DNA of 63,963 bases, the filler included, from Reclinomonas americana ATCC 50394 (Eukaryota), in assembly GCA_048213135.1 (NCBI GenBank). It is 5 parts of 4 records of this genome, joined end to end, with 100 filler letters (N's around TTAATTAATTAA, not from the genome) between each part and the next. Parts side by side here need not be neighbours in the genome. Positions count along the whole stretch, not along the records: positions 14,125 to 32,843 come from PS015142.1; positions 32,944 to 56,598 come from PS015142.1; positions 56,699 to 61,831 come from PS015143.1; positions 61,932 to 63,963 come from PS015144.1; 1 more part is not named here. One strand, 5' to 3'. Each line of letters starts with the position of its first letter. The stretch's first letter is position 1. A model generated the notes under the pieces. It saw only the letters and a program-made list of their open reading frames with translations, ran no database searches and had not been told where the DNA came from. Below, in pieces: positions 14,018 through 63,963 of this stretch. Both the position numbers and the translations under genes were made by a program.

Positions 14018-14024
14018 TGAGTGT

Positions 14025-17881: not shown

Positions 17882-19145
17882 TTATTGTGGTGAGTGGGGA
17901 TGCTGGTGATGGTGCGCTGCTGCTGCGTGCGACGGTCCCGGCATCGCCTGCGACGGCGCCTGGGCGAGATGCTGCTGCTGCTGCTGTTGCTGTTGTAGTT
18001 GCTGCACCTTGACGAGTGGGTTGGCGAACTTGATGGTGATCTTGTTGGGTCGCACGAGGCGATGGATCGACTCGAGCACCTGATCTTTGACCATTTGCTC
18101 CACGGCTTCGTTGTTGCGCATGCGTGCCGGATGCCCGACGATACTCTCAAACTTGTAGTCCAACTCGGGCTCTCGCAGCATCGACACATCGATGACCATG
18201 TGATGGCTGTGCGGTTCTCGCCGCACGTCGATGCACAACTGCGGAGGGATTGATTGAGAACAAGCCTGTACGCCTCGCGCACACACACACAGAATACCGC
18301 ACCCGTGCGCGCAGGATCACAGCCGACACAGTAATGTCGACGGGCAGACTCATCGAAAACCACGACAGCTCCGTGGCAAAGTTCATGGTGGCGTCGCCCT
18401 TGTACTCCACATCCACTTGAATCGACTGCCCCGGTAGCACACACCGTGTTAGCACCATGTACTCGACAATACACGACTGCAAAACGCACCAAGCGACTAT
18501 CGTCAGCCGCATTCGACACCTCCAAGTTGGAGAACACCGGCAACGCATGGCCGAGTGAGAAGTGTCGCAGCTCCAGTGGCGCCTGTCGACCCGCCAGACG
18601 AGTGAGAGCAGACACACACACATACAGCGGGCGGTACATGCACGCAACAATCGCATCCTGCAACTGGAGTCCATCGAGACGATCGCGCACATGCGACTCA
18701 ATCTGCGGTCGCACCTCATGCAGCACCTCATTGTAGATCTTGAAGAGCATCACATTCAACCAGTCACAGTCCTCCGGCTGCTTCTGCACCGGAACCTGTG
18801 CACGCACGCGCAAGTCAGAAAACGAAGAGAAGAACGCGTGGCATTCATTCCACTCCAGCGCGCAACAGCATGTCGAGTCGGATGATGCACGTGTCGTCCA
18901 GCCACAGCCGAAGCCGCCGCACCACTGCCACCACCAGCAATGTGCGACACTGATGATCCACTACTAGAGTCCTCAGCTGCTGCTGCTGCAGCAGCAGCGG
19001 CCTCTTGTAACTGTTGTCGGCGACGCATCATGCGTTCGGCCGTGCGCCGCGCCGGTGGCCCAAAGCGACAGAAGAGCGCCATTAACGCGCCCAACATGGT
19101 CAGCACGCCGCACAGAAAGCCCGTGACAAACCACAGCATCGACAT
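17882..19145 (-). CDS. N-anchored SMP (TULIP) lipid-transfer protein, Mmm1/PDZD8/TEX2-like
   Basis: TM segment WFVTGFLCGV; EDCDWLN motif; LRHFSLGHALPVF; VDVEYKG; EPELDYKFESIVG..RLVRPNKI. Confidence 0.8.
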
Positions 19146-19225
19146 GGTGTGTGTGCGCGCGCGTGAAGAAGGGAACAAGTCAATCAAGAGCGGGACCGTC
19201 GTCCTTTACGTTTGTTCCTCCTCGC

Positions 19226-21119
19226 ATGTCTCTCGCGCAGGCCGCCCGCTCTGGGCTCTGTGTGAGCACTGCAGGTGCGGCGCTGTGGCTCTTCTTGTCG
19301 CAGCGGCGAGCGCACAGTCGATACACGCTCTTTGCGGAGACGACGCCGAGTGCGTCGGTGGCCGAGCAGCACGTTCCGCGTCGCTTGCCACTGCCGCCCA
19401 ACGTGCACCTCCGTCGTGTGATTGTCATTATGCGGTCTGTGTGCTGTGCTTTGTCGCGAGAAAGCTGTGTTGTTTACAGATGGATGCATCTGCGGTGCAG
19501 GCATGGTGATCGTGCGCCTGTCAGTGAGTCGCTGGGTCGCGCGTATCGCGTGACAGAGGAGGAGCGAGCGTACTGGCTGCGGTCGCTGCCGTCGGCCGAT
19601 GACCGGCTGGCCTGGGACGACAACTGCCCGCCGGTGCAGCTGCGTGGTTTTCCCACCATGATGAGTGCCTCACATGTCTTCCCCGCTCACGTCGATCCAC
19701 GTGCGCGCGCGCAGAGACGAGAACCCGAACGAGAGCTACGCGGTGAACTTTAGCCGACGGCACCCGCTGGGAGAGCTGACCACACGCGGAGCGGCGCAGG
19801 CGCGTGGTGTGGGTCACGCACTGCGGGAGCTGTACGTCGAGTACTACGGACTGCTGCCGGCGAGTCTCACTGGCGAGTGTTGCTTGCGGCGTCGTCGTTT
19901 CCTGCGCTGTGCGTGTGCTGACGTGCGGTGGGGTGTCGTTGCAGACGAGAATCGGTCGGCGCTGTTTGTGAGGAGCACTGGCTTCTCGCGCACGGTGCAG
20001 ACGGCGCAGAATGTGGTGCTCGGGCTGTATCCGCCTCCCGCCACCAACTGGATCGATCGGGAGACGGCGGAGCCGGCGCAGCTGCACACCACGGTGCCGA
20101 TCAATGTGCGCTTGTGGGATCGCGAGACGCTCCTGTCCAACTCAGATCGCAAGTGTGCTCGTTTCGCCAGTCTGTTGCGCGCGCACACTCGTCGTGATCG
20201 CGTGCGTGAGGTCGGCGAGGCCGAGCGTGAATTGTCGCAACGTGTGCGGCAGGTGCGTGTACCTGCATGCCCTCCCTTTGCATCGCCGCTGTCTCACTTG
20301 CTGTTTAAATCGCCAAGGCCTACGACATTCCCGAGGGAGAGCACGTGTCGTGGACCGGCGTGCATGAGCTGTTGCGGTGTCGCTATGAGCACGGAATGCC
20401 GTTCCCGGCGCCACTGACTGCCGCCGACTTGGAGTTGGCGGCCGAGATCAACCGTGCGCGCTGGTGGACGTGGTACGCCGATCCGGAGCTCAGCCGTCTG
20501 GCCATGGGACGGTTGCGTGTGGTCAAACAAACGCGCAGAGGTGGTGAGTTGAGTTGTCGCTGACGTCCTTCTCTCTTCGGCAGCCTGGTGGACGACATTA
20601 TCCACATTGCCCGGGACCACGCGCGATCGGGGTAAGAGTCACTCGCGGCCACTTGTGTGTGCACATCAATTTTTCCTCACGTCTCCGTGTGACAGACCAC
20701 GATTGCTGCTCTTCACCGCGCACGACAGCACGATTTTGCCCCTCCTCGCTGCGCTGCAGCTGCACGTTCCGGCCAACGCGGCCGAGAAGAACAATCATGC
20801 CAATAACAACAACAACAACAATCTCGTTGACGGCGTGGAGACGGGTCCTGGACCGGAGGATGTGATGCACGTGTACACTGCCTCGCCGTGGCCGCCGTAC
20901 TGCTCGGCTTTGGTGTTCGAGGTGTACGAGGACACCTCCAATCCGGCTGCGCCAAGCACGCTGCTCCGCGTGGCACACGACGGGCGCGACCTGTGGGTTC
21001 CCGGCTCGTCGTCGCTGTTGTGCCCGCTGGAGGCTTTTGATCGCCGGATGCGACCACACATTCCGGTCGACTACCGCGCAGAATGCGCGAGCACTCATGC
21101 GCCCGCGTCGCGCACATGA
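19226..21119 (+). CDS. Histidine acid phosphatase (clade 2, ACP6-like)
   Basis: Spliced VIMRHGDR, GELT..G, RST..RT..TA, AHDSTI, WPPYCSAL.FE motifs. Confidence 0.9.
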
Positions 21120-21254
21120 GCCAACAATGGCCGGTGGAGCTGCAGTGACACGAAAACAATGGATGCTGAGGCTTCACACATCATCCTTCTATCGTCTCTT
21201 TACTGTCCAATCCCCCCCTGCCATGGTCATCGCCACCAACGCTGCGATGGGAGA

Positions 21255-22735
21255 TCACGACCTGGCAAGCGGATCTTCTCCGAGTTCCCACACGCACACC
21301 TTTTCGTCCCAGCCACACGTGGCCACCTGCAGATGCATTGAGCAACGACACAGATACCGATAGAAGAAAATAAGCACGCCCGCACCTGACCCTCCACGTA
21401 GAGGTTCCAGTCCAGGCCAACCACGAACTCGGTGTGATGCTCATGCTTGTGCAAGATGGGGTCACGCGCCTCCGTGTCCCACACAATCATCGTCATGTCG
21501 CTGTGACAACAGCGCGTGAGTACACACAGGCATGCATGCTTGTGAGAGCGAGCTGCATCCGCGGCGCAACTAGGAGCACGAAGCGAGAATGTTCTCCTCG
21601 TGTGGTGAGCACTTGATGCGACGCACCGCATACGTGTGGCCACGCAGCGTCGACAATTCTTGCTCGGGTGCGCGGAGGTCCTGCGAGGCATGTAGTGAGG
21701 TGACGCAGCAACACCACAGAAAACGAGCACCACGCACCCATATCCTAATCGTCTTGTCGACGGAGCCGGTCACGAGAATGTTGTCATTGTACTTGTTCCA
21801 GTCGCACGTGAGAATCTCGTAGTCGTGCGCCTTCAGGGTCTGCACCGAGTGCAACTCTGCGTACCCATGCGCAACAAACGTCAGGTGCTCGTGTGTGCGT
21901 CGCCACCTGCGCATCGCCGCACAACAACCAAACCATTCACGTCCCAGATCTTGACCGAGCAATCGCCCGAGGCCGACGCAAACACGTTGGCGTCGCTTGG
22001 CGACCAAATCGTCGAGTACACGCAGTACGTGTGCTCCTCGTACGCTCGCAAGCTCTTATCCTGCTCCAGCGACCACACTCGCACAGTCTCATCCCACGAA
22101 CCCGTCACAAACGTGTCCTTGCCTGCAAAACGGTGAGACGTGTGGCAAGGAACGCTCAAGCATACCCAAGCACGCAACCGACGAGGTTCCAGTCCACTGA
22201 ATACGCCTCGTTCTGGTGCTCTGCGTAGCTCTTGAGTGGGTTCTCCAGAGCCTCCAAGTCCCAGATCTGTGCACAACAAGCAGTCAATGCGCCTCCTCCG
22301 ATGTGTCGGAGGGAGTGAAAGCAGCGGTCTCACCTTGACACTTCCGTCGCCACTGACACTGACCAGGTGGTTCTCGTTCTCCTCGCTCCACGCACAGTCG
22401 TACAGGCCATCGTCTGACAGAGAGAAAGAGAGAGAGAGAGGGTCACACTCACTTGCTCATCCTCAACAGCATGCATCTTTCGCAACTCGAATCAAACGTG
22501 TGCACTGTCTCAATCACTCCCTCGTCGGTGTTCACGTCGAGCACATACTGCCGTCCGTTGCCCACAATGCCAAAGTGCTGCGCGGTCGACACGGCCAGAC
22601 GCGTCTCCTCAAAGGGCGAGAACTCGACCTGGTGATGAGCGTGTGTATGAGAGAGTGTTTGTGTGTTGTGTGAGCAGACGGTGCAACGGAGGCACACACC
22701 GAGTAGCCAGAGAACTCGGTGGTGAACACTGGCAT
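21255..22735 (-). CDS. PEX7: Peroxisomal PTS2 receptor (WD40)
   Basis: FSGYSVEFSPF..RLAV..AQHFGIVGNGR, DGLYDCAWSE, AHDYEILTCDWNKY, GHTYAVRRIKCSPH, HHTEFVVGLDW. Confidence 0.96.
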
Positions 22736-22865: not shown

Positions 22866-25800
22866 CTATGGGGGCTTGGCGGCGCCCGGTGGTCTGAACG
22901 ATGGCGGTGGTGGCTTGATGCCGGCCACCGACACTCGTGGTCTGTCGAGTGGAGCCGGTGCTGCATGCGAGGAAGCCAGAGGTAAACAAGAAGGGGCATG
23001 AGAAGAGAGCAGAGGGGTGGTGAGATATGCGTACTCACCACCTGGCGGCTGTGGCGAGCGTGCGCCGACGCTAGACGTTCCCCCGATGCTGGGAGGTGGA
23101 GACACACTCAGCGTCACACCGGAGGCGGCGGCTCCAGCATTCGGACCCGGTGGATACGTGAGCATGGCCGAGGCACCAGCACCGCCTGCACCGTTGGGCG
23201 CACCCTTTTGCTGCGATGCCATCTTGATGCGCAGTGCCGACATTTCTTTCGAAAACTTGCGGGCGTTCTCCATCATCTGCACAGGAGGCGCATCAGGGAC
23301 AGGTGCATGCAGGACGCAGCCAGCACGCGGACGCACCTGTTCCTCCATGGCACGCACTTTGGACTCGGCCTTTTCGGCTCGCATCGCCATGGCGAACTTT
23401 TCTGCGGTCAGCGTCTGCTTCTCCTCGCGCAACTTGGTCAGCTCTTGCATCGCATCCGCCGACGGCGGTTCTCCGCTGCTCCGCGGCAATCGTGAGATAT
23501 CACGTCACGCAATCACAGAGTGCGGGGAGGGGGGTGTACGCACTTGGCTCCCTCGGCTCCAGGTCCTTGCTTCGACATTCGCTGCAGACGAGCATTCTCC
23601 ATGGTGAGCTGCGACTTCTCGCTTCCCCACTTGGCCTGCTCGGCCAGCAGCGCCGCCTTCTCCTTCATCAACTGCGCTTTCTCCCGGCGCAGCTCGGCCA
23701 CGTCGCCCGGCTCGTCGGCTGCGCTCCCGCCCTTGGACGGACTGGAGGTGGGAGTGGTGGAGCCGCCTTGATCTGTCGAACACCCCCCACCCATCACGAG
23801 TGAGTGACACGACGCAGTCGACGCGCACGCCCCTCCTTGCACCAAACGCAACATCGCCTCACAGTGACCTCCAACACCTTCTCCAGTCGCTCAATCACCT
23901 CCTCCTGCTTCTGCGCCGTCTGACGGTACTTTTCGAGACGAGCATTCTTGCTCTGCAGTTTCTGCAGAATCGTGCTCTGGATCATGTGCGCCTGCTCCAA
24001 CTCGATGAGGCGTTTTGAGGCCTCGTTGCCGCGAATGATCTCGTTCTGCAGGCCTTGGATCTTGAGTTCGTACCGGTCCGCCAGTGACTGCAGTCGCCGA
24101 ATCTCCGACAGCGCAGTCCGATGCTCCTCCATCAGCTGCTCTCGCGACAAGTGCTCCAGCGGGCGTGCCGTGTCGAGATGCGACGTGTCGAACTGGTCCA
24201 CCTGAGCCTCCAACCGCTGCACTTCTGCACGCAGTGCGGCGTTCTCGGCCGTCACCTGACGAATGCAAGACCCGTGAGTGGACACGCATGGCGACATGTA
24301 GAGTGGCATCACCACATACCTGTGCAACATGCTCCGACTGATCGTCCAGCTGGTGCAACAACGAGCTAATCACCGCGTCCTTGCCAGTGATGATGCTCTC
24401 GTAGGGCGACGGTTCCGTGCCCCCACTGCTGCTTCTCGCCGAGCTGTTGGTCCCCGAGGATCGCTGCGACGATGCTAGCGCCTCTCCAGGAGTGCCGCTG
24501 TGACAAGTGTGAGGTGATGACAGTGACGAAACGGACAGTCGCGTGGAGTACACACCGATCAGTCGCCGGCGGTGGCCGCCCACCACCACTCGAGTGCTGT
24601 GATCGAGCACTGCCGGGAGATAGCGCGCCAGTGGGTGGTTTGCCCATGCCCGGTGGTGCAAGTCCTCCCGTGCCACCCTGTGGCAGCGGCAGAGCCGGCA
24701 TGTCCGGTCGACCCCGGCTACTCGGCAACAATGCAGTCAGTGATTGTCGGAAAGCTCCTTGGGTGCATCAGTTCAAATGTACCTCGGGGGCTTCTGGTAT
24801 GCCGGCGAATCGGAAGACGAGCGACTGCGCACGTTGGGTCGCTCCGCAGGCGGCGACGACGACAACGAACGATTCGTGTTGGCTCCGCTGCCGTGCGGCA
24901 CTAATCTGTCGTGCTCAGCAGGCGATCGCATAATGGGAACTGGATTGTCTCCGTCTGGTGGCACGACAAGAGCAATCTCAGGGGTGTGAGTACCCAGGAG
25001 AAAACAACTGCGGCTGCTCATCCTCTCTACCACACATGCCTGCACGCGGCCGGCCGGAGCGTGGTGGCAAGTCGGAGGTGGTCGGGCGTTTTCCCGGTGA
25101 TGCTAATGGACACGCACGCAATATAAGAGTTGAACCACGCATGCAAAGTGANNNNNNNNNNNNNNNNNNNNNNNNNNNNNNNNNNNNNNNNNNNNNNNNN
25201 NNNNNNNNNNNNNNNNNNNNNNNNNNNNNNNNNNNNNNNNNNNNNNNNNNNNNNNNNNNNNNNNNNNNNNNNNNNNNNNNNNNNNNNNNNNNNNNNNNNN
25301 NNNNNNNNNNNNNNNNNNNNNNNNNNNNNNNNNNNNNNNNNNNNNNNNNNNNNNNNNNNNNNNNNNNNNNNNNNNNNNNNNNNNNNNNNNNNNNNNNNNN
25401 NNNNNNNNNNNNNNNNNNNNNNNNNNNNNNNNNNNNNNNNNNNNNNNNNNNNNNNNNNNNNNNNNNNNNNNNNNNNNNNNNNNNNNNNNNNNNNNNNNNN
25501 NNNNNCTGCTGCATCGCCATCGTACGCACCACCCATATTGCCGTCGGCCGCGACACGCGGTGATTGCTCACTGGGAGGTCGTCCACCGGCCATTCGTGAG
25601 CTTCGTGGATTCAGAAAGCTGCGAGTGCGTGGGAGAGTCAGCCTCATTCCCGGCCGTCACCCATCTCCACCAGGCAAACCTATTGCGCCCGAGGCTACTT
25701 TGCCGCGAGAGCCGGCCGTCGTCGACGTTGGGAGACGAGGGTGATTTGACAGGATCGGAGAACACGGAGGAGACGGGGCGGACGAGGCCAGCGGACTCAC

Positions 25801-28487
25801 GCCGCAGTTTGACCAGGTACTTTTCCCCAACCCACAGCGCCGTTTTCACATGGAGCTGCATCGCATCCATTCCACGTCACGCCACGACGACAGTGTGGAG
25901 TGGACGGCATGAACAACACAACACGTACCCCACACTTTTCCTCCATGTGGTAATCCGAAGCACCGACGACTCGCAACTTGCAACGCGCACTGCACTCGAG
26001 GCATCCCTGCACCACACCACACCAGCTGTCAAAAAATGCACAAGGCGCATGCAGAAGTGCGCGAGCGCTGACCTCGGGTGTCATGTTCTCCGGCGCCGCA
26101 ATCTCTGATATCGGTATGGACACGAAAGCGCGCAGCTTGGCGCCCAACGAGTGCTCGCCTTCCTCGTCCGGCTGCGCGGTGGCATGCGATGAGCGACAAA
26201 CACACGAGCAGAGAGAGAAGCACAGACAGTGTCAAACCGGTTGCGGAAAGGTGCGCTCGAATAATTGCACCACCACGTGCGTGTTGGGACCGAGTGTTGC
26301 CTGTGCAGAACGTGAGCGTGTGTCGCGAAACAAGGACGCCTGCATGCTACACACACCTGATCTTGCACGAATACGCAGCGCTCGTTGAACTCCACCATCG
26401 ACGAGCGAACACTTCCCGGGAAGAGCACTTGTGGTTTGGAGAGGAAAGGACTCGCGACAAACCCCTGCATCACGCCCGCGTTGTGAGCAGCAGCAGCAGC
26501 AGCGACACCGAGAAATACAGCTCACGCAACAAGACTCTCAAACGGATTCGCCTCCGACAAGTGCACCGTCGACACTGGCAAGTTGATCGAGTAGGAACCC
26601 TGCGCACATGCAAGCGCAGAGTGTGTCAGGCCAGCGCAGACCCACCACCAAGAAGACGGCATCGTGAAACTCTTCTGATGCTAGACTTGAAGATGGTCAT
26701 GTCAGGCATCACCGATACCACCGGCACAAAGTCGCTCACGACACCGGCGGCCGCCAGTTCACCGTCGAGCATCATGATGGACACCTGCACAAGTATAGTG
26801 TTACCCACACACGGACGAGGAAGAGAGGCACAATGACATGCCGCGCACACGTACCCCTAGTCGGCGAAGTGACGGTCGCTCCTCAAACAAAACAATGTCC
26901 TCCTCACGGAAGCGCTCCACCTGCAGCGTCAGATACAGTCGCACACCGTCGCGACTGACGACCTCCAGATTGTGCCTGTGCGCGGGCAGTGGTTGAATAC
27001 AAAGGTAATACAACAGCTGCCCTCCAACAAGCTGGACGCAACGTGTGCGACGATGTCAAGCAGTGGAACGGAATCACAAAACGCAGACCATCGCTCACAC
27101 GACCGTCGGCGCCGTGCAAGCGCACCTGCACTCGCAGACCCACGCTGGCTCCACTGGCCAGATCCTGCACACACAAGGAATTCCCCACGTAGCGTTACAC
27201 AGACTGTGGTTTCAGCGCGGGCAGTCACAGCCTCGCACCTCTTCAGGCAGACTCAATTCAATCGTTCTCCGCCACCGCGCACACTGGCCTTCCACTGCCA
27301 CCGCTTCCACCTCGGCATCGGCACGAACACGAACCACGCCGTCGCCGTCACGTGACTCTGCCACTTCGACGACGTGCTCCACCACCTGGAACGCCACCGA
27401 GGCCATGGCCGCGCCGATCGGTAGCGGCGACGCGCAGTGGGCGTGAATCTTGATGATGCGACAGGCCGGATGCTGGCCCTGAGGGGAGGAAGAAACAAGG
27501 CATGAGAAGGTGGATGAGTTGAACGCTGGTCCACACACACACCTGTAATGGCGTGTTCAACATCGATCGCTGGCCCGGCGGTGGACGATTGCCCGTGGTG
27601 GGCGGTCGACCACGCTTGACCGGCGACATGCCAAAGGCGACAGGCGACACCACACCGTCAATGCTGACACGGAAGCGTGAGGACGGTCCCACTGGCTGCA
27701 GCGTGATACCGGTCAGATTTTGATGTGCCGGCGCTCCCGAACCGATCGGCGGCAACAGCATTCCGCTGTCAGTGGAGGCCAACAGCGGCGTGGCTGAACT
27801 CTGCGCCATCACGGCATCGGTGTCCTCGTCGATCAGCTGCAGCACCAGCCGTGGTCGCCGCGACGGTCGCACGACGAATGCCGCCTCCTCGCCCTGGCAA
27901 ACACACCACGTGTGACTGCGTGTCACACAGAGAGACAAGTGGTCACTGGTCACACAACACACCTCATCGCCCTGCCCGCCCAGCGAAGCACCGTGCATCT
28001 GTCGCAGCAGTCGCGTGCGGTGCACCTCCTCTGCCTTGCCAGCCGCACTCGCTCCACGTGCCGCCGGTTGTCCCACCCGAACCGCCGTTGTCACTGTCGA
28101 ATCCCCTCGATCCTCCTGCACCAACGCCCGCACAAAACACCGCTTCTCGCCCGCCTCCGGCAGCTGCTGCCGATCAACCGCCTCCAGCGAAATGCGCGCC
28201 AAACGCAGCAGAACATTGGCTTCACCATCCAAATCACTCACATCCTCATCCTCATCATCGTCATCATCATCATCGCAGTCTGAGTCAGACTCTGCGCCAC
28301 CATGGCTGCCACGCACACGAGCAGCACCTCCATGTGTCGCACTACTACCACTTGCCGCGGCAGTGGCGACAGGTGGCACCACGGCAGGTGGCTCATCGAT
28401 ACCAGCCGCCCACGTCGGCATGCGCGCCACTTGGTGCGTGCGACGGTCATCGTCGCCGCCACCGCCACCGCTCTCACGTCCACTCAT
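22866..28487 (-). CDS. CCDC33-like protein (C2-like domains + C-terminal coiled coil), spanning gap 25152-25505
   Basis: Beta-rich C2-like exons at 26000-28250; LEQAHMIQ..LQKLQ..KYRQTAQKQEEVIERLE and MMENARKFSKE resemble the CCDC33 C-terminus; one-gene model across the gap is inferred. Confidence 0.55.
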
Positions 28488-28586: not shown

Positions 28587-29342
28587 ATGTCATCGGGGAA
28601 GAAGGCGCCGGCTGCCTCCAGTGGCAGTGGCAGTGGCAGTGCGTCTACCACGCGTCCTGTGCGGACGTCGTCCATGGGCAGCGACCGCGGGGCACCAGTG
28701 CGCACGGATTACAAGACGAGCTGCTGGGGATGTCTGAGTGACAGTGGTGTGCTCGGTGAGAAGCGAGTCGCACGGTGCATGTGTGGGGTCAGTGCTGCTG
28801 CTCATTGTGTCTGCATCAGCACGGAGCTGTTGCTGGAATCAATGGGCTGTGAACTACAATCAGTTGCGCGGACTTGCATGCTGTGTTATGTGCACATTTT
28901 GTGTGTTGACTTTTGTCTCTCAGATCCACCGGAGTGCACACGTCGAGTCGCCAGTCCATCTGCACCAAGCCGTGTCTGGTGCCTCTGGCGTTTTGCTTGA
29001 TTGGTGTGTGTGTGTGTGCATTTTTTTGGTGTGCTCATCAGTGTCATGCTGACTTCAATCGCGTGCAAGGCATGGGTCCGTGCAGCTGCATGTACTACGA
29101 GTATCAGGCGCGCAAGCGAGTACGAGACACGTGGAAGTACAAGGTGCGACATACGAGCAGTCGAGAAAGAGACAGAGAACTCACTCTGTCGCGTGCAGGA
29201 GGATCCGGTCGGCGATGGGTGCAAGACGATAGTGTGCTTTCCGTGTGCGGTGTCACAAACGGCGCGCGAGATCAAGGTTCTGCTGCAGCCCAAGTACGAG
29301 GCGCAACTCGACGAGTTGCTGACGGCGTACAAGAAGACGTAG
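28587..29342 (+). CDS. PLAC8/cornifelin-family Cys-rich protein
   Basis: YKTSCWGCLSD..SCCW..; RKRVRDTWKY..DGCKTIVCFPCAVSQTARE. Confidence 0.85.
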
Positions 29343-29451: not shown

Positions 29452-30851
29452 TTACTCGGCGGCGGCGGCAGAAGACTCGCCCGGTGTGTACGTGGGGTAG
29501 TCGATGTAGCCCTTGTCGCCTCCAACGTACCATGTCTGCAAGTGCACGAACAGGTGAGCATTCCAGCGTCATCATGACACTTCGCACACGCACAAAGGCA
29601 CGTACCGGGTAGTCGTGCTTCGCGAGCGGCGCACCGATGCGAAGGCGCTCGACGAGGTCCGGGTTGGCGATAAACAGGCGCCCGAACGACGCAAAGTGCG
29701 CCTTGCCCGACGCAACGAGGCTCTCGGCCTGCTCGGGCGGCACGCCGCCGTTGATCATCAGCGGCCCCTTGAACTCGCTGAACAGCGCGAGGTTCGACTC
29801 GGCCACCGCCGGGTTGAAGTCGCACAGGTGGATGTAGGCCAACTTGCCGTTCAGGGCCTTGGCGACCGCGTGGTATGTGGCTTCGACGTCGGTGTGCATC
29901 ACGTCGTTGTCTGCGAGAGACAGTGAGTACGCAGACTTCTTCATCGTCTTTGCAGCAGCAGCAGCAAAGGATGACGCAACACTGCGTGACAGGCGACTGG
30001 CGGATGCCGATGCGGTTGGCGGGGAAGTGCTTGCTGACCTCCTCGAGCACCTCGAGCAAGAAGCGCATGCGGTTCTCAATCGAGCCACCGTACGCATCGG
30101 TGCGCTTGTTGGTGCCGTCGCTGAGGAACTGCTGAATGAGGTAGCCATTGGCGCCGTGGATCTCCACGCCATCAAAGCCCGCATGCGCCGCGCGCGCCGC
30201 CCCCTGTCCAAACTCCGCAATGGTGGTGGCGATATCCTCCGCCGTCATCTCCTGCGGCACCGACGCCTTCTTGTTCGTCAGCACGTGGCCGTCGGTGGAG
30301 TCGTACACCTGCACCGAGTCCGCCGGCTCAATGACCGACGGAGCAAACGGAGGGCGGTGGTCGGGCGTGTAGTCCGAGTGACCAACACGGCCGGCGTGCC
30401 ACAGCTGCAGGAAAATGTAGCCGCCCTTGGCGTGCACGGCCTCGGTCACCGCGCGCCAGCTTTCCGCTTGCTCGTCGCTCCAGATGCACACGGCGTTGTT
30501 GAAGGGAGTGCTCATGCGCGAGACGTTGGTGGCGTCAGTGATCTGCCATTGCATGTTTGAGAGAGAGAGACAGACAATAAGAGTGAGTGGGGCAACACGC
30601 TTACCAGCAGGCCACCGGGAGTGGCGCGCTGTGCAAAGTGCACCGCCACATTGTCTTGCAGCAGCTGTTCAGAGGGAGTCAGTTGCAGCAGTCGTCGCGG
30701 CGAGTGACGCAAAAAAGAAAGAGCGCGCAACGAAATCCGGGGCTCCGCGAGTGCGGCTGCGAGTCATCGGTGCGAGGACCACGCGGTGCGACAGCTGCAG
30801 GTCGCCGACTTGGAAGGGGGAGAGGAGAGTGGGGTACTGGTTAGCGCTCAT
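29452..30851 (-). CDS. Old yellow enzyme (NAD(P)H:flavin ene-reductase, classical subclass)
   Basis: HRVVLAPMTR, QLWHAGR, GFDGVEIHGANGYL, NKRTDAYGGS, FGRLFIANPDL, GYIDYP. Confidence 0.96.
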
Positions 30852-31861: not shown

Positions 31862-33056
31862 ATGTCTGCCTCCCCTCAACGCATCTTTGTCACCGGAGCC
31901 TCTCGTGGCATCGGTGAGTGAGTCTCACTCACCCACACACATGAACTTGCAGACACTCACCGCGCGCCTCTCACTTCCTCTCCAGGTCTCGCCCTGGTCA
32001 CGGAGCTCGCCGAGGCCGGCCACACTGTGTTTGCGGGCGCTCGCGACCCCGACGCCGCCACGGCGCTGCAAGAGCTCGTCGCCCGTTTCCCCCACACGGT
32101 GACTGCGGTGCAGTGTGACGTGGTCGATGACGCCTCTGTGGAGCGTGCGGCGGCGGAGATTGCCGCGCGCACCGACGGCGAGATCGACTGGGTCATCAAC
32201 AATGCCGGCATCACGGGCGAGAAGACCAGTTGCGCTGCTGCATGACACACCTACCTACCTCTTCGTTTGCATTGTCGCTCACCTCCTTCCCTCGCCATCG
32301 TAGCGTACCACCTGGACACGATTGACCGCGCCGGAGTGCTGGAGGTTCTCAACGTGAACGCAGTGAGCCCGCTGATCGTCAGCAAGGTGTTCAAGCCGCT
32401 GCTTGCCAAGTCCAAATCCGCCAACAAGGTACTTGCTTGGCCTCCTCGTCCCCCGTGTTCCTTCTCCCTCTCACGTGTGGTGTGCCGCGACGCAGCAACT
32501 GGTGTTCATCTCCTCCATTCTCGGATCGACGCAGCTGGCCGCCGGCGGCACATGGAGTGCGCTGGCCTACCGCCAAAGCAAGGCTGCTGTCAACATTAGT
32601 GCGTTACACTGTCTCTCTTTCTCTCTCTCTCTCTGTCGTGCATCGCTCACTGGCGCCCCACCGTGCACAGCCGCCAAGGTGCTCAAGACCGAGTTCGACG
32701 AGCTCAACGTCGTCGTCACAAGCATCCACCCGGGTTGGGTCGATGTTGCGCATCGCTCTCATTCTCTCCTCCCTCCCCCCTTCCCTCGACGCTCACCATT
32801 CTCTCCACTCACCAGACCGACATGGGACGCGCAAACGGCGAGCNNNNNNNNNNNNNNNNNNNNNNNNNNNNNNNNNNNNNNNNNNNNTTAATTAATTAAN
32901 NNNNNNNNNNNNNNNNNNNNNNNNNNNNNNNNNNNNNNNNNNNCACCGCTGAAGGTGGGCACGGTGGCGCCGGCCATCATCAAGGTGGTGGAGTCGTCGA
33001 CGCTGGCCGACTCCGGATCATTCCGGTCATGGGAGGGTCAAACGATCCCCTTCTAG
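31862..33056 (+). CDS. C-factor/CsgA-like short-chain dehydrogenase/reductase (spans linker gap)
   Basis: TGASRGIG, INNAG, YRQSK, HPGWVDTDMG, SGSFRSWEG..IPF*. Confidence 0.95.
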
Positions 33057-40731: not shown

Positions 40732-40935
40732 ATGGAGAGTGCACTGTTGGCGCTGCTGTCGGCACCGAGCAAGTCGTTTGTGGACCGGCTCTTTCTCAAG
40801 GCCTTCTCGTGTCGACATGATCGCGCACCTCCGGCCGAGTTTGTCTCCGCAGTCGCCGAGCAACTGGGCGCCGATGAGCCCAGCACTCTGCAAGTTGCAC
40901 ACACACACGATGCTCATGAGAGACACGCCGCACAC

Positions 40936-40975
<40 letters not shown>

Positions 40976-41534
40976 GTTGATTCACGCGATTCAAGAGTGC
41001 ATTGGCAAGTCGCAGTATGCGGCCGAGTCAGAGGTCGGCTCTGGTGCCGAGTGTGCGAATGCGGCGCTGTCGGCTGAGTTTGAGCCGCGGTTGCGTGCGC
41101 TCATTGGTGACATTCTGTGGGCGCATCGGCAAGAGTGGCGAGAGGAGTCCATTCAGGTCCTCCTTGCCTTGTGAGATGAAGTTCCGACGAGCGCTGCGCG
41201 CGCGCTGATCCTCCGTGTGCTGCGCAGACGCAAGTGTCGTTCCCGCGACTGGTGGACTTTGACTGGCGAGTGGACGTGCGAGCGGCGTCGCAGTTGGTTG
41301 GACGCATGGCGGCACCGGCTGTGTTGCTGTCGCTCAAGGTACATTCTTCCCCCCTTTGCTTTGTGAGTCGTTTGTTGTGGTGCTCATGTGGCCGTGTAGA
41401 CGCTGGCCAACCCGACCAAGAGTGGAGTGGTGCCACCGGTGCAGAATGTGACGTTTGAGATGACGCGTGAGACGTTGCAGGCGCTGTTGAATGGGCTCGG
41501 CGACATTCGCACGCAGCTCAATGCACTCAAATGA
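40732..41534 (+). CDS. COMMD9: COMM domain-containing protein 9
   Basis: LLALLSAPSK; PRLVDFDWRVDV..RMAAP..L.L; NVTFEMTRETLQALLNGLGDIRTQL. Confidence 0.85.
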
Positions 41535-50517: not shown

Positions 50518-52961
<2,444 letters not shown>

Positions 52962-55433: not shown

Positions 55434-55439
55434 ACACAA

Positions 55440-56598: not shown

Positions 56599-57410
56599 NN
56601 NNNNNNNNNNNNNNNNNNNNNNNNNNNNNNNNNNNNNNNNNNTTAATTAATTAANNNNNNNNNNNNNNNNNNNNNNNNNNNNNNNNNNNNNNNNNNNNTG
56701 AACGCCGGAAACACGTGAGTGAGTGTGCATGCAGGAAAACCAAACACGACACAGCGGGTGAAAACGAAACGCGAAGAAGGCGATTGGTCGCTCGCGAGAA
56801 GCACAGGAGCACACCCGCGGCCAGGCAGATCGCGCTGCATAATGGTCAGAGCGATGCAAGGAGACAAAACAAGCAAGAGAAGGAGATGCGCGCACCCTGC
56901 CACGCGAAGAATGAAGCCGCCAATGCGAGTCTCCTGTGTGCATCAACGACGAGTGTGTGTGTGTTTGAGCAGGAAGACTCTCAGTGGTCAGTACGTGCAT
57001 GCACACAGACCTCGACGGAGAGCTGTTCCCCCAGCACCTGCACATCAGCATTCAGCCAGCCAATTGCTGCACATGCACAGTTGAGACAAGAGAAGATGAA
57101 GAGGAAGAAGAGGAGGGGCTCACCGCCAAGAAGGAAGAAGACGCCACTGAGCCGCACGACCTGCGCGATGTAATTCATGTTAAAATGTCAATGAAAGCAA
57201 GTCGATGTCGATGTCGATGTCGATGTCGACCGTCGACTCGACAGATCGACGCACGCACACACACACACACACACACACCGATTGATCGCTCACAGGCAGA
57301 GAGAGGTGAGACAACGCACCGTGCACACACACACGCGCACGTCTGCACGACATGTCGACTCACACACACCCGCACTTTCTCTTTCTCTCGCTTTTCACAC
57401 ACACAGACGG

Positions 57411-60057
57411 ATGAGCGACGAGCACCAGCAAGTGTTGCACATTCTGCGGCACCCGCTGCAAGTGATTGATGCGGCCTTTGAGGAGCTGGTGAGCAGTGGG
57501 GAGGAGCAGGACGCTGCTGCGTGTGAGCAGGTGTGTGCGCAGGCGCGAGAGAGTGTCGATGCGTCGGGCACGTTTCGACCAGCCGCTGTGGGCGAAGACG
57601 CCGTGCTGCAAGTGATTCACGATGAGTCGGTCTATGCCAGAGTTGCGATCAACAACATGCATGGGAGATCAATCACACATTCTTTCTCACTCTCCCCGCA
57701 CAGATTCCGCTGTTGAATGCGTGCCGACAGCGTGATCTGGTCGATGGGTGCATTGTGCGGTACCGGTGCATGGTGCAAGACATGTGGGATCCGGAGCTGT
57801 ACGTTGGCACGTTTGTGTTGCATCACGCGGCAAGTGGAGCTGTGCGTGTTGTCCATCACAAGTACCGCGATGCGCTCGATGTGCCAGTGCGTGACAGTCC
57901 CACCTTCCCTTGTGTGTGTATGTACCATCTCATCGCGTTGTGCGCCAGCCTGGGTGTGACATTGACACTGATTTCACCAATCCGCTGGTGGTGACGGCAC
58001 CGCGACGATCATAGTTGCGACGCAGCAGTGTTCTTTCCCTCCCATCTGCCGTCCTTCTCATGTTTGTTTTTGTTGGCAGTTATGCGGTGCCGGTGCCGGG
58101 TCTCACCGAGTGGGCGCTGGCCTCGCAGCAGGAGGAGAATCGCGCGAATTGCTACGGGTGGGGCGAGGATGTGTTTGTGGTGATGGACGACGAGAGGCAG
58201 AGGCGGAAGCGACGGGCGGTGGCCGACGAATCCGATCCGCTTGATGTGCGACTGGCCTCGGGTGCCGCGGCTGCGCAGGCGGAGAGCGACATGGCACGTG
58301 AGGGTGGTGCGCCGTCGAAGCGCAAGCGTCGACGGGGTGGTGACGACGAGGTAGATGACGACGACGACGACGATGGTGAGGAAGGAGGCGCGAGAGGGCG
58401 CATGGTGGACGACGGTGACGGTGGCGAGGGAGAGGAAGATGAGCATGGCGACGACGGGGAACGTCGCAGTCGCGCAGGCCCATCGCGCTCGCCGGTGTCG
58501 TCCGGCACCGCTGCTGCGGCTGCGGCTCCCGGTGCACGAGTTCCGGTGGCGCAGATTGGCAATCGCAATCTGCCGCTGGCCTCTGCCGATCGAGCGCCCC
58601 CGTGTGTGCTGCATGTTGCGCGTGGGCGTGTTGTCGCGTTTTGCTCCGGAGCGTTGACTGAGAGAAAGAGGGTGTGCGACAGATTTACGACGAGGAGACC
58701 TCGGTGGAGAGCATGTTCAAGATCTGCGACGTGATTGAGGTGGTCGGCATTCTCGCCGTGGACGGCATCAGCGATGACCTGGTGTACACAGACGAGTTGC
58801 GTGCAGTCGATCTCCTTGTGGCGTTGGCTTCCTTGTTGTTGATGAGTGTGTGGTTCTCGTGCGCAGAGGTGCACTGATGAGCGAGTTCCCCGAAGATGTG
58901 GCCGCACACCACCCGCCGCACGCCTTTGTTCCGCGCATTCACGTGCTCGCACACCGCCCGTTGCCGACGCTGATCTCGCCGATGGCACTCTCGGCGCCAT
59001 CCATTCCCACGGCGCTCGTCGAAGTGCGTGAACACCTGATTGACTTTCTCGCGTTCCACTTGGGCGGCGATCGGCTGGCCGCCACGTACTTGCTGCTCAA
59101 CTTGATCTCCAGAGTGTTGCGTACGTGCACATGCACAGAAGCGTATTGCTTTGTCTCACCGTCCGTCGTGTTGCCGGTGCAGAGAAGATCGTCGGTACGA
59201 TCAGCCGCTCGGCACATTTGCCTTGTCACTGGGCATGCTGTCGAGCGCCGACGTGGAGCGCCTGGTGCAGTGCGTGATTGCACCGCTGTTGCCGGCGTTG
59301 CATGTGGTTCGCTGCTCGCCCGAGGCTCTCGGTGCCGCGTCGATGGTGCCGTGGAAGGACCTCACCGAAAACCGACTGAAGGCCGGCGCACTGCAGCTGT
59401 GTGCTGGCACGCATCTGTGTGTGGACGAGACGGTGTTGCGCGAGGGCGCCGTGGGGGAGGTGGCGGCGCGCAACATGCAGGCGCTCCGCTCCGTCGCCGA
59501 TCAGCAGACCCTCGAATACGATCTGGGCTTCTCACCGAAGACATTCTACACCGACATGCCAGTGCTGGCGTTCACCACACACCGCAAGTCGATTCTCGAG
59601 GTCTGTTCTCTTTGATTCCCTCCATCGTTGTGCGGTCCCTCATTGGCGTTTTTATGGTAGATTCGCTGCTGCGTGCCTCTCGCCGGTCGCGTCGCGCACG
59701 GCGGTGACATGACTCCATTCGACGTCAACATTCCCGATTTCCGCGCCTACATTGCTCACGTGCGCACGCTGCGTGCACGACTCGACGAGGCCACGTCGGA
59801 ACTCGTGCAGACGGACTATGCGCGGTTGCGCAGTGATGGGTCGCATGGCAACGTCGATCAGGTATGTGTCTCTCGCTCTGTGTGCGTGTGAGGGGTATGC
59901 TGCTCACTTGCATTTTTACGTCGTGCAGTTCAAACTGAGCATGTGGCTGGACGCGGCCAAACTGCTGGCGGCGAGCTACGGCGAAGAGGTGGTAACGGCG
60001 GAGCGATGGAGTGCAGTGCTGGGCGCTGAGCGCGATCGCTTGGATCGACTGCGATAG
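57411..60057 (+). CDS. MCMBP: Mini-chromosome maintenance complex-binding protein
   Basis: IVRYRCMVQDMWDPELY, YAVPVPG..W, EVVGIL, VPRIH, GGDRLAATYLLLNLISRV, PWKD..NRLKAGALQL..GTHL.VDET. Confidence 0.93.
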
Positions 60058-60144: not shown

Positions 60145-61670
60145 TCACCTGCGAATGTGGTACTTTTTGTACAGACTCATGAAGCGCGCGACAAATGCCT
60201 CGATGTGGAACACGGGCTTCGAACCGAGCTTCATGCGATGCTCCTGCGACTTAAAATGTCAGGGAGTCAAGGAAAGAAGACGGTGTGGAGTGAAGCAACG
60301 CAACATAGTGGGCGGCCCACTTGAGCACCTCGTAGGCGAGGTACACGTCGATCTTGGTGAGCAGCGCCAACACGAGGGTCTTGATGATGGCCTCCGGCGG
60401 AATGCAGTTGACAATCAGCTCGTAGATCTTGCCGCGCACGTCCACGATGCTGTTTATGCACGTTCAGTCAGTCAGAGCGATATGAAGGGGGAGAGAGAGA
60501 GATGCAGGTAGCAAGTGCACACCGTTTGGGACTCTGCTCCTGAATCATGCGGGCAGAGATAAAGTTGACAAACACCTCCCAGTGCGGTCTCTCCACCAGC
60601 TGCGCGTCGGAGAATGGATATCTGTGGCATTGGAGTGAGTCAGGGACGTCAACTTTGCTTGACCACAGATCCCGAATGCAACTGTTGCACGCGGCACACT
60701 TCCAATTGCAGCAGCGCGCGTCGCAAGTTGCCATCGGCCGACTCCGCAATGCGTTCCGCCAGTGCGGGTGGCAGCTGCAGCTTCTCCGCTCGCGCCACCT
60801 CGTGCAGCACTTGGGTGATCTGCGCAGAATAGTGAGTGTGCACACGCTGGGACGGCGATGGAGTTGCCAAGCATCACCTCGGCAGCTCCGGGAGCGGGCA
60901 CTCGAATCGGCACACATCGACTGCGCAGTGGCTCCAACAACTTGGAGGTGGTCTGCGAGGTTGTTGCTCGGCTATGAGTGCCTGACAACAATTGATACAA
61001 TTGGATCGGGTGACACACACCGTCGCCACCAAGATCAAGCGGCACGTGCCCATGTACTTTTCCATGGTGCGACGCAACGCCTGCTGCGCTTCGCGACTGA
61101 GGAGGTCCACATCACGCAGAACGACGACTGCGATCCAACGAGTCAGCACGAATTCGTTGCCAAAAAACACATGCTGTGCACTCACCCTTGAAGACGTGCG
61201 TCGAAGCAGTCGTCACAATCGGAGCACTGCTGGCAATCTCCTTGATCATCTCGCGCACTACCAGGCGGTCGTAGATGCCCACATCGCTGCGTGCGTGACA
61301 AAAAATGAGCTCCACACACGCCAGCGGAACTCTCTTGCGTGCACAGTTAGCAAACCTCGGTTTGACCTCGATGTGGTGCGCACTCGAGAGCACCACCAGC
61401 TCCACATCAGCGCCGCTCGGTTTCTGCAGCACGGCGCGTGATCAGCACACACTCAAAGTGGAGACACACAGCACATGAAGGCACCGACCTTGAACGTCTT
61501 GGTCTCGGCACGCAACTGCGCACCACACACCAACAATCAGTCTCTCGCATGCAAGCCACGAATCAAGCAACACAAGCTCGCCACACCTTGCGTGCACCCG
61601 GTCCAAACAACTCCACCAGCAGTGCACTCACACGCGTCTGTTTGCCGGCGCCCGAGGGACCAAAGAACAG
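60145..61670 (-). CDS. RFC3: Replication factor C subunit 3 (yeast Rfc5 type), 5' end in gap
   Basis: [67 protein letters not shown]. Confidence 0.95.
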
Positions 61671-61760
61671 CTGCAAAATACACACAAAGCGTGAGACAAC
61701 TCAGTTGCTCAACTGGATCCCTCGTTCCCGCACTCCCCACTCGCTCTTCGTTCCTTCCCT

Positions 61761-61761
<1 letters not shown>

Positions 61762-61823
<62 letters not shown>

Positions 61824-61830
61824 CTCGCTC
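61762..61830. repeat. (CT)n microsatellite
   Basis: CT run next to the gap. Confidence 0.9.
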
Positions 61831-61986
61831 TNNNNNNNNNNNNNNNNNNNNNNNNNNNNNNNNNNNNNNNNNNNNTTAATTAATTAANNNNNNNNNNNNN
61901 NNNNNNNNNNNNNNNNNNNNNNNNNNNNNNNTGGGTTAGGTCGATATCGACTGTCAAACATGGGGAGATGTGAATGATGATTAACC

Positions 61987-62490
61987 TTGGCGAGGTTGGG
62001 CAGGTTGACGCCCAGCGACATTGAGCGATCGCATCGGAACTTCTTGAAGCCCTGCACACCAACAATTGTGAGTGTGAGAGAGAGAGGCAAGGTGGCCATG
62101 GACAACCCCCCTCTCGACAGACATCGCCACTCTTTCTTTCTCCCCCCCCTCCTCTCTCTCACTCTCGCTCCCGCCTCTCACGTGTGACGCAACATCAGCG
62201 CGCAGCATCATGTGGACGAGAGAGACGTGTGAGGGATCCATGGCCTGCAGCGACAATCCCGATGATGATGCCTGCTCATTGACTCACATGAGCACACATA
62301 CAGAGCAGAGAGCAGAGAGAGTCGCGGGGTTGCGCAACATCAAAGTTTGCCTCAATCACCAACTCCTTCACTGTGAGTGAGCGTGTGAGCGTGTGAGTGC
62401 GTGATGAGGTACTTTGATCATCACTGCGCGCTCACCAGCCTCAAGCACTCGCTTGAGCACGTGTCCTTGTTGCATCCGAGCCTCGAACAT
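61987..62490 (-). CDS. PCNA: Proliferating cell nuclear antigen, 5' part (rest in gap)
   Basis: MFEARM.QG..LKRVLEAVKELV.EANFD..GLSLQAMDPSHVSLV..FRCDR..SLGVNL. Confidence 0.96.
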
Positions 62491-62772
62491 GGTAATTAGA
62501 GTGGTGGTGGTGGTTGCGCGCACGCTGTGTTGACACGATTGAAGCAAATAGGCAAACCCTGGACAGATTCGTGTCGCGCGGGAGGTACTCGCGACGTCGC
62601 TCGACCGGCAACCACAAGAAGCACGAGTGGAAGGCAGCGCACGGTGCTGTTGCGCGCTGCATTAAACATAGCCACACGTGGACGCGAAGAAGAAGGAAAG
62701 AGAAATGACATCAAGTGTCCTGCGATTGACGCCGACGTTGCTTTTCTACTTGCACATAACACGCGCGCGCGA

Positions 62773-63963
62773 ATGAGTGAAGCTGCAATGGCCGGTGAGG
62801 CCACTGGCACCGCCGGAGTGGCACCCATCAAACCCGAGTTGCGTCTCACGCACACGCTCACACACACGCCATGTCACACTCACTCACACTGATACACGCA
62901 GGTTCATTCTTGCGCGTCCTCCTCCGCCGCCGCCGCCAGTAGCAGCAGCAGCAGCAGCAGCACCAGTTGAAGCAACTGATGCAGCCAGTGGCAGTGGTGT
63001 ATCAGTGCCAGTGGATCTCGGCGATCAAGTGACGCTGGAGGGCACTGGCAAACGTGAACGAGCAGAGGTAAGTCTCTCTCTTTCTCTCTACTCTCTCACT
63101 GTGCATTGCATCCTGCTGAACGAACGACTCGCCGCAGCAAGTGGAAGCAGAGCCGCGACGGAAGCGACAACGCGGCATGAATCGTGGAGCCGAGCGCCCG
63201 CGCAATCCAGTGCCGAAAGAGGTGCATTGCTTTGCTTGCCTTCCCTGTCCACACACGTGCCTGAGTGAGTAATGTGCAGCGTACACAAGGGCTGCCATCG
63301 GGTCGCTTGACCGAGTTCAACTGCTTCTCCAGCACGCTGCTGCGCGACTTGCGCAAGCGGCGCAATTTTCCGCGCACCAAGGCCGCCGAGAGACACGCTG
63401 CGGCTGCTATCAAGGTCCTGCTGCCGGCGTCTACAGTGGCCGCAGCGGCGGCGGCTGCTGCAGAGGCGGAGAATGCGGCAGAGGCGGCGGCGGCAGTGGT
63501 GGTGGCGACTGCGGGTGAGCCATCATCGTCTTCGGCACCAGTTGTCGACGATCGCGAGGAAAAGGTGACTGTCGATGGTGATGGCGATGCCACCATGACG
63601 ACGCCGACACCACCGACTGCGGCTGCCCCGCTGCACGCCGGCGGAAGCGAGTACGTGGAGACGCGGCAGCTGGCGCGAGAGAAGAAGAAGGTGTCGTGAG
63701 CGCGCATGCATACAGAGGAGACGAGTGGAGGGAAGTGTGAGCTGATGATGTCTGTCGTGTGTACAGCTGGACTTCAAGGACAAGCTGTATCTCGCCCCGC
63801 TGACCACCGTCGGTAATCTGCCATTCCGCTGCGTGTGCAAGCGACTCGGTGCCGATGTCACCATTGGTGAGATGGCCATGACGCCCGAGTGCATGAAGGT
63901 GTGTGATTTTTTCTTTCTCTCTTCTGCGTGCCGTGAGGCGAACGGTGAGGAGTGGTACTCACA
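62773..63963 (+). CDS. DUS3: tRNA-dihydrouridine(47) synthase, 5' part
   Basis: [55 protein letters not shown]. Confidence 0.93.

Follow-up and report, generated by a model that had tools for sequence, protein, structure and literature searches.

Selection of the 5′ splice site rests on two textbook pillars, namely pairing with the 5′ arm of the U1 small nuclear RNA (snRNA) and a G at intron position +5, which pairs both with U1 and with the ACAGA box of U6. U12-type introns have the donor /RTATCCTT, carry the branch sequence TCCTTRAY near the 3′ end and are served by a complementary snRNA of their own. Here we describe a class of introns from Reclinomonas americana ATCC 50394 (assembly GCA_048213135.1) in which the donor reads GTTGC, followed nearly always by G, and which lacks the +5 G altogether. 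The class was found in a stretch of 63,963 nucleotides (nt) made of joined genome pieces, which is called the window below; all counts are taken from this one 64-kb window and from gene models of our own making, and the introns are predicted introns in this sense.

The closest described systems are human donors that are read in unusual registers. Non-canonical registers were validated for 1.5% of human sites, and a bulge at +2/+3 was assigned to 68 (54 curated) of 201,541 sites, i.e. about 0.03% (Tan et al. 2016, PMC4856993). As summarized there, the +2/+3 bulge sites (Roca et al. 2012, via PMC4856993) resemble the class in that the GT is accompanied by an extra U, the remaining consensus is displaced by one base and cleavage occurs before the GT. 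However, these human sites are rare and pair well after the bulge, whereas the class makes up 38 of the 213 predicted introns of the window, which is hundreds of times the frequency of the human +2/+3 bulge, and combines one single word and avoidance of an exonic G at −1 with poor predicted pairing. Similarly, at sites read in a shifted register (Roca and Krainer 2009, via PMC4856993) the +1 G stands in for the exon −1 G and the later pairs move by one base, in likeness to the class, but such sites are rare and weak in human, while the class is frequent and sharp, with a predicted −1.4 kcal/mol or worse on the standard U1 arm. A system of two donor classes with opposite use of the exon −1 G has also been described (Kenny et al. 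2025; review PMC11732430), and the same opposition is seen here (77% in ordinary +5 G donors versus 7% in the class), and the anti-correlation of exon −1/−2 strength with intron +3 to +5 strength that marks that system is matched here by the counts of exon −1 G (82/106 versus 3/45). The exon-independent class of that system is presented as GURAG, with the +5 G paired to the U6 ACAGA box (Kenny et al. 2025; review PMC11732430), in contrast to GUUGCG, which has neither the +5 G nor the +4 A. Finally, in Ostreococcus lucimarinus the donors of chromosome 2 follow a looser GTRNGT, while those elsewhere in the genome are a rigid GTGCGTG; altered snRNAs or two spliceosomes were raised as explanations and judged less likely (Irimia and Roy 2008, PMC2483917). 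The likeness lies in a GC-rich, unusually rigid donor built around GCG and in two intron populations within one genome; by contrast, the rigid donor of O. lucimarinus keeps the +5 G, goes with a rigid ACTGAC branch site and occurs in an intron-poor genome part (PMC2483917), whereas in the class described here the +5 G is missing, the loose branch site is that of the other introns too, and both kinds of intron occur side by side within single genes. No description of a GTTGCG donor class was found among the top-ranked matches of full-text literature searches, although papers showing only logos, or supplements, could still contain one.

A donor word used far beyond chance

The window is gene-dense, has a GC content of about 58% and carries genes on both strands that are split by many short introns. 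GTTGCG occurs in it 92 times on both strands (43 on the plus and 49 on the minus strand), compared with 30.6 times for the mean hexamer. An earlier note on the window had listed 33 introns as a second major class of 5′ splice site lacking the +5 G, and at each of them the strand named does read GTTGCG (30 sites) or GTTGCA (three sites, 40894 and 47450 on the plus strand and 60682 on the minus strand). Introns were then predicted with a self-written dynamic-programming gene finder, which takes coding potential from a three-periodic Markov model and permits introns between any GT and AG that are 35–400 nt apart. The intron score takes in only the GT, the AG, the length (with a peak at 68 nt), a CTNAY motif 9–40 nt upstream of the 3′ end and the acceptor base −3, leaving the finder blind to donor positions +3 to +6. 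Its coding model was seeded with pieces of open reading frames (ORFs) matched by Pfam and subsequently retrained on the finder's own output.

The final run over the whole window yielded 213 introns, of which 38, about one in five, begin with GTTGC, and the +5 base is C in every member of the class, so that the class is as large, and as devoid of the +5 G, as had been proposed. The most frequent donor hexamer is GTTGCG with 34 introns, followed by GTGCGT and GTGTGT (15 each) and by GTCTGT and GTGCGG (6 each). The word is used as a donor at 34 of its 92 occurrences, compared with 213 of 8550 for all GT sites (Fisher, p = 1e-31). That its frequency merely reflects the independent base frequencies at +3 to +6, which the earlier note had named as grounds for giving up the class, is not borne out within the window, where 1.7 such donors are expected and 34 are observed (binomial, p = 4e-33). 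Twenty-six of the 33 listed sites were recovered exactly by the donor-blind finder, while seven were misplaced or missed, and 12 further GTTGC donors were added (10 GTTGCG, one GTTGCA and one GTTGCT). Retention would disrupt the reading frame for 36 of the 38 donor-blind GTTGC introns. The same word emerges from a test that is independent of coding potential, in which every GT was scored for a CTNAY followed by CAG or TAG 55–85 nt downstream: GTTGCG is followed by this pattern in 35/91 cases (38%), compared with 1089/8412 (12.9%) for GT sites (p = 8.5e-10), and ranks best among the GTNNNN words found 20 times or more, whereas control words with the same tail and another start (NNTGCG) reach 6–20%.

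Single exons were furthermore sent to profile and homologue searches, and the matched coordinates on both sides of each junction were compared. They continue across seven junctions of the class, five of them closely (59116, 58014, 60304, 30731 and 62193) and two approximately (29980 and 32229). In the gene for an MCM-binding protein (57411–60057, plus strand), the MCM_bind profile runs to position 321 before the intron at 59116–59182 (67 nt), the split codon corresponds to 322 and the next exon resumes at 323; at the intron at 58014–58079 (66 nt) the profile reaches 73, is followed by an exon of 21 amino acids and continues at 95. In a tblastn search with 85 full-length homologues of this protein, 53 high-scoring segment pairs (HSPs) end at 59116 and 35 start at 58081, and the 59116 junction shows zero net gap in 38 of 55 homologues. 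At the third intron of the class in this gene, 58615–58682 (68 nt), 13 homologue HSPs start at 58680. All three were called by the donor-blind finder, as were the next three introns to be named, which lie on the minus strand. In the RFC3-like gene the RFC_C profile runs 70/71 across the intron at 60244–60304 (61 nt). In the old-yellow-enzyme-like gene the Oxidored_FMN profile reaches about 33 before the intron at 30665–30731 (67 nt), an exon of 20 amino acids takes up 34–53 and the profile then continues at 54, while around the intron at 29911–29980 (70 nt) it reads 229 before and about 238 after. The PCNA gene on the minus strand has two members of the class: across the first, 62052–62193, the PCNA_N profile runs 55/56, and the finder missed it because of its length of 142 nt; after the second, 62272–62338 (67 nt, called by the finder), the next exon begins at PCNA_N position 30–31. 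On the plus strand, the exons flanking the donor-blind intron 32229–32303 (75 nt) of a short-chain dehydrogenase gene match the dehydrogenase chain 3wxb_A at 52–121 and 132–161, placing the junction within 3 residues. Weak matches only are found around the kinase-domain intron 46489–46556 (plus strand, donor-blind), where the preceding exon ends in the kinase glycine loop (Lyn, E 0.25) and the next one opens with the VAVK motif (B-Raf, E 0.04). Short exons, such as those of the kinase, dehydrogenase and WD40 genes, gave no Pfam match when searched one by one up to E 3.

It could be argued that the boundaries were misplaced by the earlier reader and by the finder alike, and that the real donors are ordinary GT sites nearby. 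The boundaries are indeed predictions and the coding model is self-trained, and the placement of the listed donors is uncertain at three sites, where a rival GT lies 3–13 nt away and leaves the frame open as well. At 57642–57703 (plus strand, 62 nt; MCM-binding protein) the finder chose GTCTAT 12 nt upstream, in the same frame and with the same acceptor, at 42531–42593 (minus strand, 63 nt) it chose the GT at 42596, 3 nt upstream and in the same frame, and at 18796–18866 (minus strand, 71 nt) it chose GTGGAA at 18853, 13 nt away and with another upstream frame. On the other hand, the RFC3-like GTTGCA intron 60622–60682 (minus strand, 61 nt) was placed correctly in the earlier note and wrongly by the finder, which had GTGCCG 15 nt upstream: with the exon extended to the listed donor, the lid profile scores 51.9 instead of 49.7 bits and covers positions 1–42 instead of 1–39 of 43. 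Against misplacement in general, a finder blind to +3 to +6 nevertheless chose GTTGCG 34 times, and the word already came first, with 15 of 205 introns, in an early run with a flat intron penalty in which only Pfam-matched ORFs served as seeds. The coding-independent test concurs, and the profile coordinates abut exactly at 59116, 60304, 30731 and 62193, with the 53 homologue alignments ending at 59116. Such an artefact is therefore highly improbable. The donor-blind finder, the coding-independent test and the homology across junctions agree that real introns begin with this word, and the GTTGCG introns are a genuine, discrete class in the window, which comprises roughly a fifth of the introns, is far more prevalent than chance allows and has the most efficiently used donor word.

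Sharpness and anatomy of the class

The word tolerates hardly any change. Expressed as uses per occurrence, its neighbours reach 3/67 for GTTGCA, 1/65 for GTTGCT, 0/40 for GTTGCC, 0/45 for GTTGTG, 1/29 for GTTGAG and 0/23 for GTTGGG, and likewise 0/85 for GTCGCG, 2/118 for GTGGCG and 0/17 for GTAGCG, so that any one-letter neighbour is used only 0–3 times. GTTGCG alone provides 34 donors, compared with 26/372 for the four GTGCGN words combined. For the anatomy of the class, the 33 listed sites and the 12 additional donor-blind sites (n = 45) were set against 106 donor-blind donors with +5 G. The exon positions −3 (C in 36% of the class versus 33% of ordinary donors) and −2 (A in 36% versus 41%) are alike, whereas position −1, which is G in 77% of the ordinary donors, is A in 40%, T in 42% and G in only 7% of the class. 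The difference in exon −1 G (3/45 versus 82/106) is pronounced (Fisher, p = 1e-16), and the value for the class even lies below the 32% G background of the predicted coding sequence (binomial, p = 4e-5). Within the intron, ordinary donors have G at +3 (55%), C or T at +4 (36% each), the defining G at +5 and T (58%) or C (17%) at +6, while the class has GTTGC, followed by G (89%) or A (9%) at +6 and by T (60%) or C (29%) at +7. All 45 class introns are GT...AG, as expected of U2-type introns, but U2-type donors have G at +5 and usually at exon −1, whereas C stands at +5 throughout the class and G stands at −1 in 3/45.

Beyond the donor, the two populations are the same. The median length is 67.5 nt in both, with a slightly narrower range in the class (10th–90th percentile, 62–74 nt versus 58–77 nt), and the base composition is alike. 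Branch motifs rank identically, with CTCAC first, then CTGAC, then CTCAT. A CTNAY lies within the last 40 nt of 31/38 class introns, a rate that is partly by construction, since the finder favoured such introns and only the coding-independent test provides an independent check, and acceptor position −3 is C or T in 37/38. The shared length, branch motif and acceptor therefore indicate that the same branch-site and 3′ machinery removes the class introns. Both strands carry the class, which is spread over a dozen genes or more and interspersed with ordinary introns. Among 200 short introns, the branch-like motifs number 67 for CTCAC, 35 for CTGAC, 26 for CTCAT and 2 for CTAAC; a preference that puts CTCAC first is unusual.

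Several further accounts of the class were tried and rejected. The class introns share with U12-type introns their minority status, a long and near-invariant donor and the absence of an exon consensus, but they differ in the donor word and have an ordinary branch motif at ordinary spacing; with GTTGCG as donor and CTCAC, CTGAC or CTCAT as branch, as in the other introns, they are not U12-type introns. Nor is there support for a stem that the donor would form with a complementary word farther into the intron, since GCAAC is found in 2/38 class introns versus 13/162 others. Avoidance of GTTGCG in sense exons was likewise discarded, the word being present 19 times in sense and 12 times in antisense.

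How the word may be read

The earlier note had described GTTGCG as the local GTGCG consensus with one extra U, and this holds formally: class positions +4 to +7 (G, C, G in 89% and a pyrimidine in 89%) match ordinary positions +3 to +6. Accordingly, ordinary snRNAs could read the class in a non-canonical register, either with a U at +2/+3 bulged out or with the U1 helix shifted by one base, so that the +1 G replaces the exon −1 G; GCGY would then occupy the slots +3 to +6, and the class would owe its frequency solely to the short, intron-defined nature of the introns, for which the strength of U1 pairing matters little. Both registers have been proven at human sites (Roca and Krainer 2009; Roca et al. 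2012; both via Tan et al. 2016, PMC4856993). The identity of length, branch motif and acceptor with those of other introns is in keeping with such a reading, and the shifted register would make the exon −1 G unnecessary, which fits its presence in only 3/45 sites. The predicted energies point the other way. With the standard U1 5′ arm taken as printed in Tan et al. 2016 and with parameters for unmodified RNA, leaving aside proteins and pseudouridines, the best duplex of the class consensus in any register has −1.4 kcal/mol with A at −1 or +0.5 kcal/mol with U at −1, compared with −8.0 to −13.3 kcal/mol for ordinary donors; a usefully stable helix in an alternative register was thus not found. 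The same extra U inserted into other common donors gives words that go largely unused although the parents are used: GTTGTG is used in 0/45 cases (parent GTGTG*, 23 uses), GTTGAG in 1/29 (GTGAG*, 12), GTTACG in 1/6 (GTACG*, 8), GTTTTG in 0/24 (GTTTG*, 8) and GTTCTG in 2/26 (GTCTG*, 6), whereas GTTGCG is used in 34/92 (GTGCG*, 26). Per occurrence, the supposedly bulged GTTGCG is used about five times as readily as its parent (37% versus 7%), the reverse of a penalty. Neither register predicts T at exon −1 in 42% of the class or G below background, and in human the +2/+3 bulge accounts for only 68 (54 curated) of 201,541 sites (PMC4856993). With its weak U1 duplex, its unused +U images and the depleted exon −1 G, the bulged or shifted register proposed earlier is insufficient as it stands, and we consider it rather unlikely, though still to be reckoned with, that ordinary snRNAs suffice to read the class.

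The other options raised in the earlier note, a variant U1 or U6 snRNA or a dedicated factor, agree better with these observations. We tentatively favour, without firm confidence, direct reading of W/GUUGCGY by a complementary partner, most likely a U1 snRNA, be it the sole U1 or a variant copy, the 5′ arm of which matches the word; less likely is that the reader is a dedicated factor, whether protein or RNA. Early recognition of the 5′ splice site would then consist in reading a word of about seven letters as a whole through a directly complementary reader, probably U1 with a 5′ arm that matches GUUGCG. Since the match to GUUGCG would provide a self-sufficient, GC-rich helix, the exon −1 G would be dispensable, and its low frequency would fit a helix confined to the intron, or one to which an exon −1 G would lend too much stability. 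Over-stable U1 binding may hinder U1 release, as in yeast, which would account for the avoidance of G at this position. The hand-over to U6 would have to tolerate an offset of one base, for instance through an unpaired U at +3, because GCGY sits one base deeper than in G/GTGCGT donors, while the remainder of the reaction, with branch site and 3′ end, would be ordinary.

A number of observations weigh against a special reader. Few RNA sequences of eukaryotes are as conserved as the U1 5′ arm, so that an altered arm is less probable from the outset. GTAAGN, the best partner of the standard arm, is used in 5/18 cases, suggesting that a standard U1 is present; as GTAAG* is readily used, a special reader, if there is any, probably coexists with standard U1. 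The resemblance of class positions +4 to +7 to the commonest ordinary donor is what a bulged or shifted register would lead one to expect. The word alone is not sufficient, given that 19 copies lie inside predicted sense exons, and of the 23 introns predicted in the region 8001–16000, 15 have a +5 G and none has a GTTGCG donor although the word is present 10 times, so that genes may not all use the class alike. The proposed reader is, in addition, wholly inferred from the donor pattern and from predicted pairing, and both have their bounds, the energies being calculated without pseudouridines or proteins and the counts coming from the one window. An Rfam scan of the window gave no snRNA match at gathering scores or up to E 0.5, and a pattern scan of the window for a small RNA that starts with the complement of the motif and ends in an Sm-like site found none. 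As a side observation, GTAAGT is very rare, with 5 occurrences on both strands, and the region 8001–16000 includes an Aurora-kinase gene (14645–15770, plus strand).

A more far-reaching form of the preferred reading would amount to a third flavour of splicing, in which about a fifth of the introns are committed through complementarity to GUUGCG, either of an additional, U1-like snRNA or of a U1 arm that has been remodelled, and are then finished by ordinary U2, U5 and U6 with a one-base offset at the 5′ end; a rigid, U12-like donor would thereby be combined with an ordinary branch site. Taken together as one claim, this appears doubtful, if by no means far-fetched.

The word could, alternatively, be a historical signature without any special reader: a past burst of intron gain, through one mechanism or mobile element, would have supplied it, and purifying selection would have kept a donor that works. 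The slightly narrower length range of the class (62–74 versus 58–77 nt) and its uneven distribution, with 0/23 introns in 8001–16000, could reflect such an origin, and the preference for A or T at exon −1 could be a target-site preference. However, only 2 of 703 pairs of class introns show any similarity, in both cases through simple repeats of CT or GCT, and the ends of the class introns show no enrichment of inverted or complementary motifs. A family derived from repeats, introners or transposons was accordingly rejected, the 38 introns having no common interior. The class is also found in old housekeeping genes (PCNA, RFC3-like, MCM-binding protein), and a history of this kind leaves the missing one-letter variants unexplained, as drift from one functional donor to another should have made the word less sharp. 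A mere relic of intron gain is thus improbable.

Members of the class along the window

Of the members not yet located, those named below begin with GTTGCG and were called by the donor-blind finder unless stated otherwise, and the 12 that are absent from the earlier note are marked as additional. Towards the start of the window, the intron 4304–4367 (minus strand, 64 nt, additional) follows an exon of 445 residues (4369–5703, minus strand) with no convincing Pfam match, a weak repeat match only. The candidate intron 18583–18648 (minus strand, 66 nt) was missed by the finder although a CTCAC branch and a CAG are present; it is free of stop codons and a multiple of three in length, which makes it a blind spot of frame-based gene finders, and its retention would add 22 residues in frame, as a possible retained-intron isoform. 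The single GTTGCT variant lies at 19879–19944 (plus strand, 66 nt, additional) and is followed by the intron 20512–20583 (plus strand, 72 nt) of a histidine phosphatase gene. On the minus strand, a WD40 gene contains 21501–21570 (70 nt, additional) and 22123–22178 (56 nt), and further introns lie at 22414–22486 (73 nt), 23773–23852 (80 nt), 24256–24328 (73 nt, GTTGCA, additional), 26465–26530 (66 nt, additional) and 26976–27042 (67 nt). The candidate 28863–28923 (plus strand, 61 nt), with the acceptor CAG at 28923, was not called by the finder and belongs to a gene without homologues.

The short-chain dehydrogenase gene has a second intron of the class at 32745–32815 (plus strand, 71 nt), the downstream exon of which is partly N. 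Farther along follow 33928–33988 (plus strand, 61 nt, additional), then on the minus strand 38326–38402 (77 nt), 38813–38880 (68 nt), 39323–39393 (71 nt, additional) and 39561–39627 (67 nt, additional), and on the plus strand the GTTGCA intron 40894–40976 (83 nt) of a COMM-domain gene. Several introns, this one among them, consist mostly of a dinucleotide repeat, and the commonest hexamers of the window likewise stem from CA/GT and CT/GA dinucleotide repeats (CACACA 357, TCTCTC 277). On the minus strand, 41964–42030 (67 nt) and 42439–42505 (67 nt, additional) precede the candidate at 42531–42593 mentioned above, which has the tandem donor GTTGTTGCG (42593–42596, minus strand), with two GT 3 nt apart in the same frame. 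The gene encoding a PH-kinase carries 45510–45578 (69 nt) and 46302–46366 (65 nt) on the plus strand, and the kinase domain is interrupted by the intron at 46489, which is 62 or 68 nt long depending on which AG is used, and by the GTTGCA intron 47450–47517 (plus strand, 68 nt). The former ends in the tandem acceptor TTAGAGCAAG (46551–46556, plus strand), with two AG 6 nt apart in the same frame; this acceptor and the tandem donor GTTGTTGCG could give rise to isoforms that differ by one or two residues. The remaining introns are 47736–47805 (70 nt), 48352–48413 (62 nt), 48555–48614 (60 nt, additional) and 49487–49549 (63 nt) on the plus strand, 50677–50745 (69 nt, additional) and 51111–51180 (70 nt, additional) on the minus strand, and 62838–62901 (plus strand, 64 nt) near the end of the window. 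The window is interrupted by stretches of 44 N, 12 bases and 44 N (14025–14124, 32844–32943, 56599–56698 and 61832–61931) and by longer runs of N (5816–5914, 25152–25505, 51512–51531 and 52107–52577); one N stretch hides the larger part of the exon downstream of the 32745 intron, and another sits within the PCNA gene.

The MCM-binding protein has its best relative at 38% identity among 1.84 billion representative proteins, and its best named matches are scattered over a thraustochytrid (Hondaea first), a heterolobosean, arthropods, streptophyte algae and a picozoan, while a scan of metagenomes with one of its exons gave no match. An exon of the Aurora kinase is about 80% identical to that of many eukaryotes and gives no placement among them. 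A homologue search among longer proteins with two other exons found none. Judging by the MCM-binding protein and these two exons, the searched protein collections seem to contain no close relative of the organism.

The most frequent donor word of the window thus does without the +5 G and without the exon −1 G, and is predicted to be nearly unpaired with the standard U1 arm. In this genome, a large proportion of the genes will be annotated wrongly by gene finders whose training relied on +5 G donors. Such an organism would be a natural experiment on what selects the 5′ splice site, on the register in which U1 hands over to U6 and on the co-evolution of snRNA arms with the splice sites that they read.

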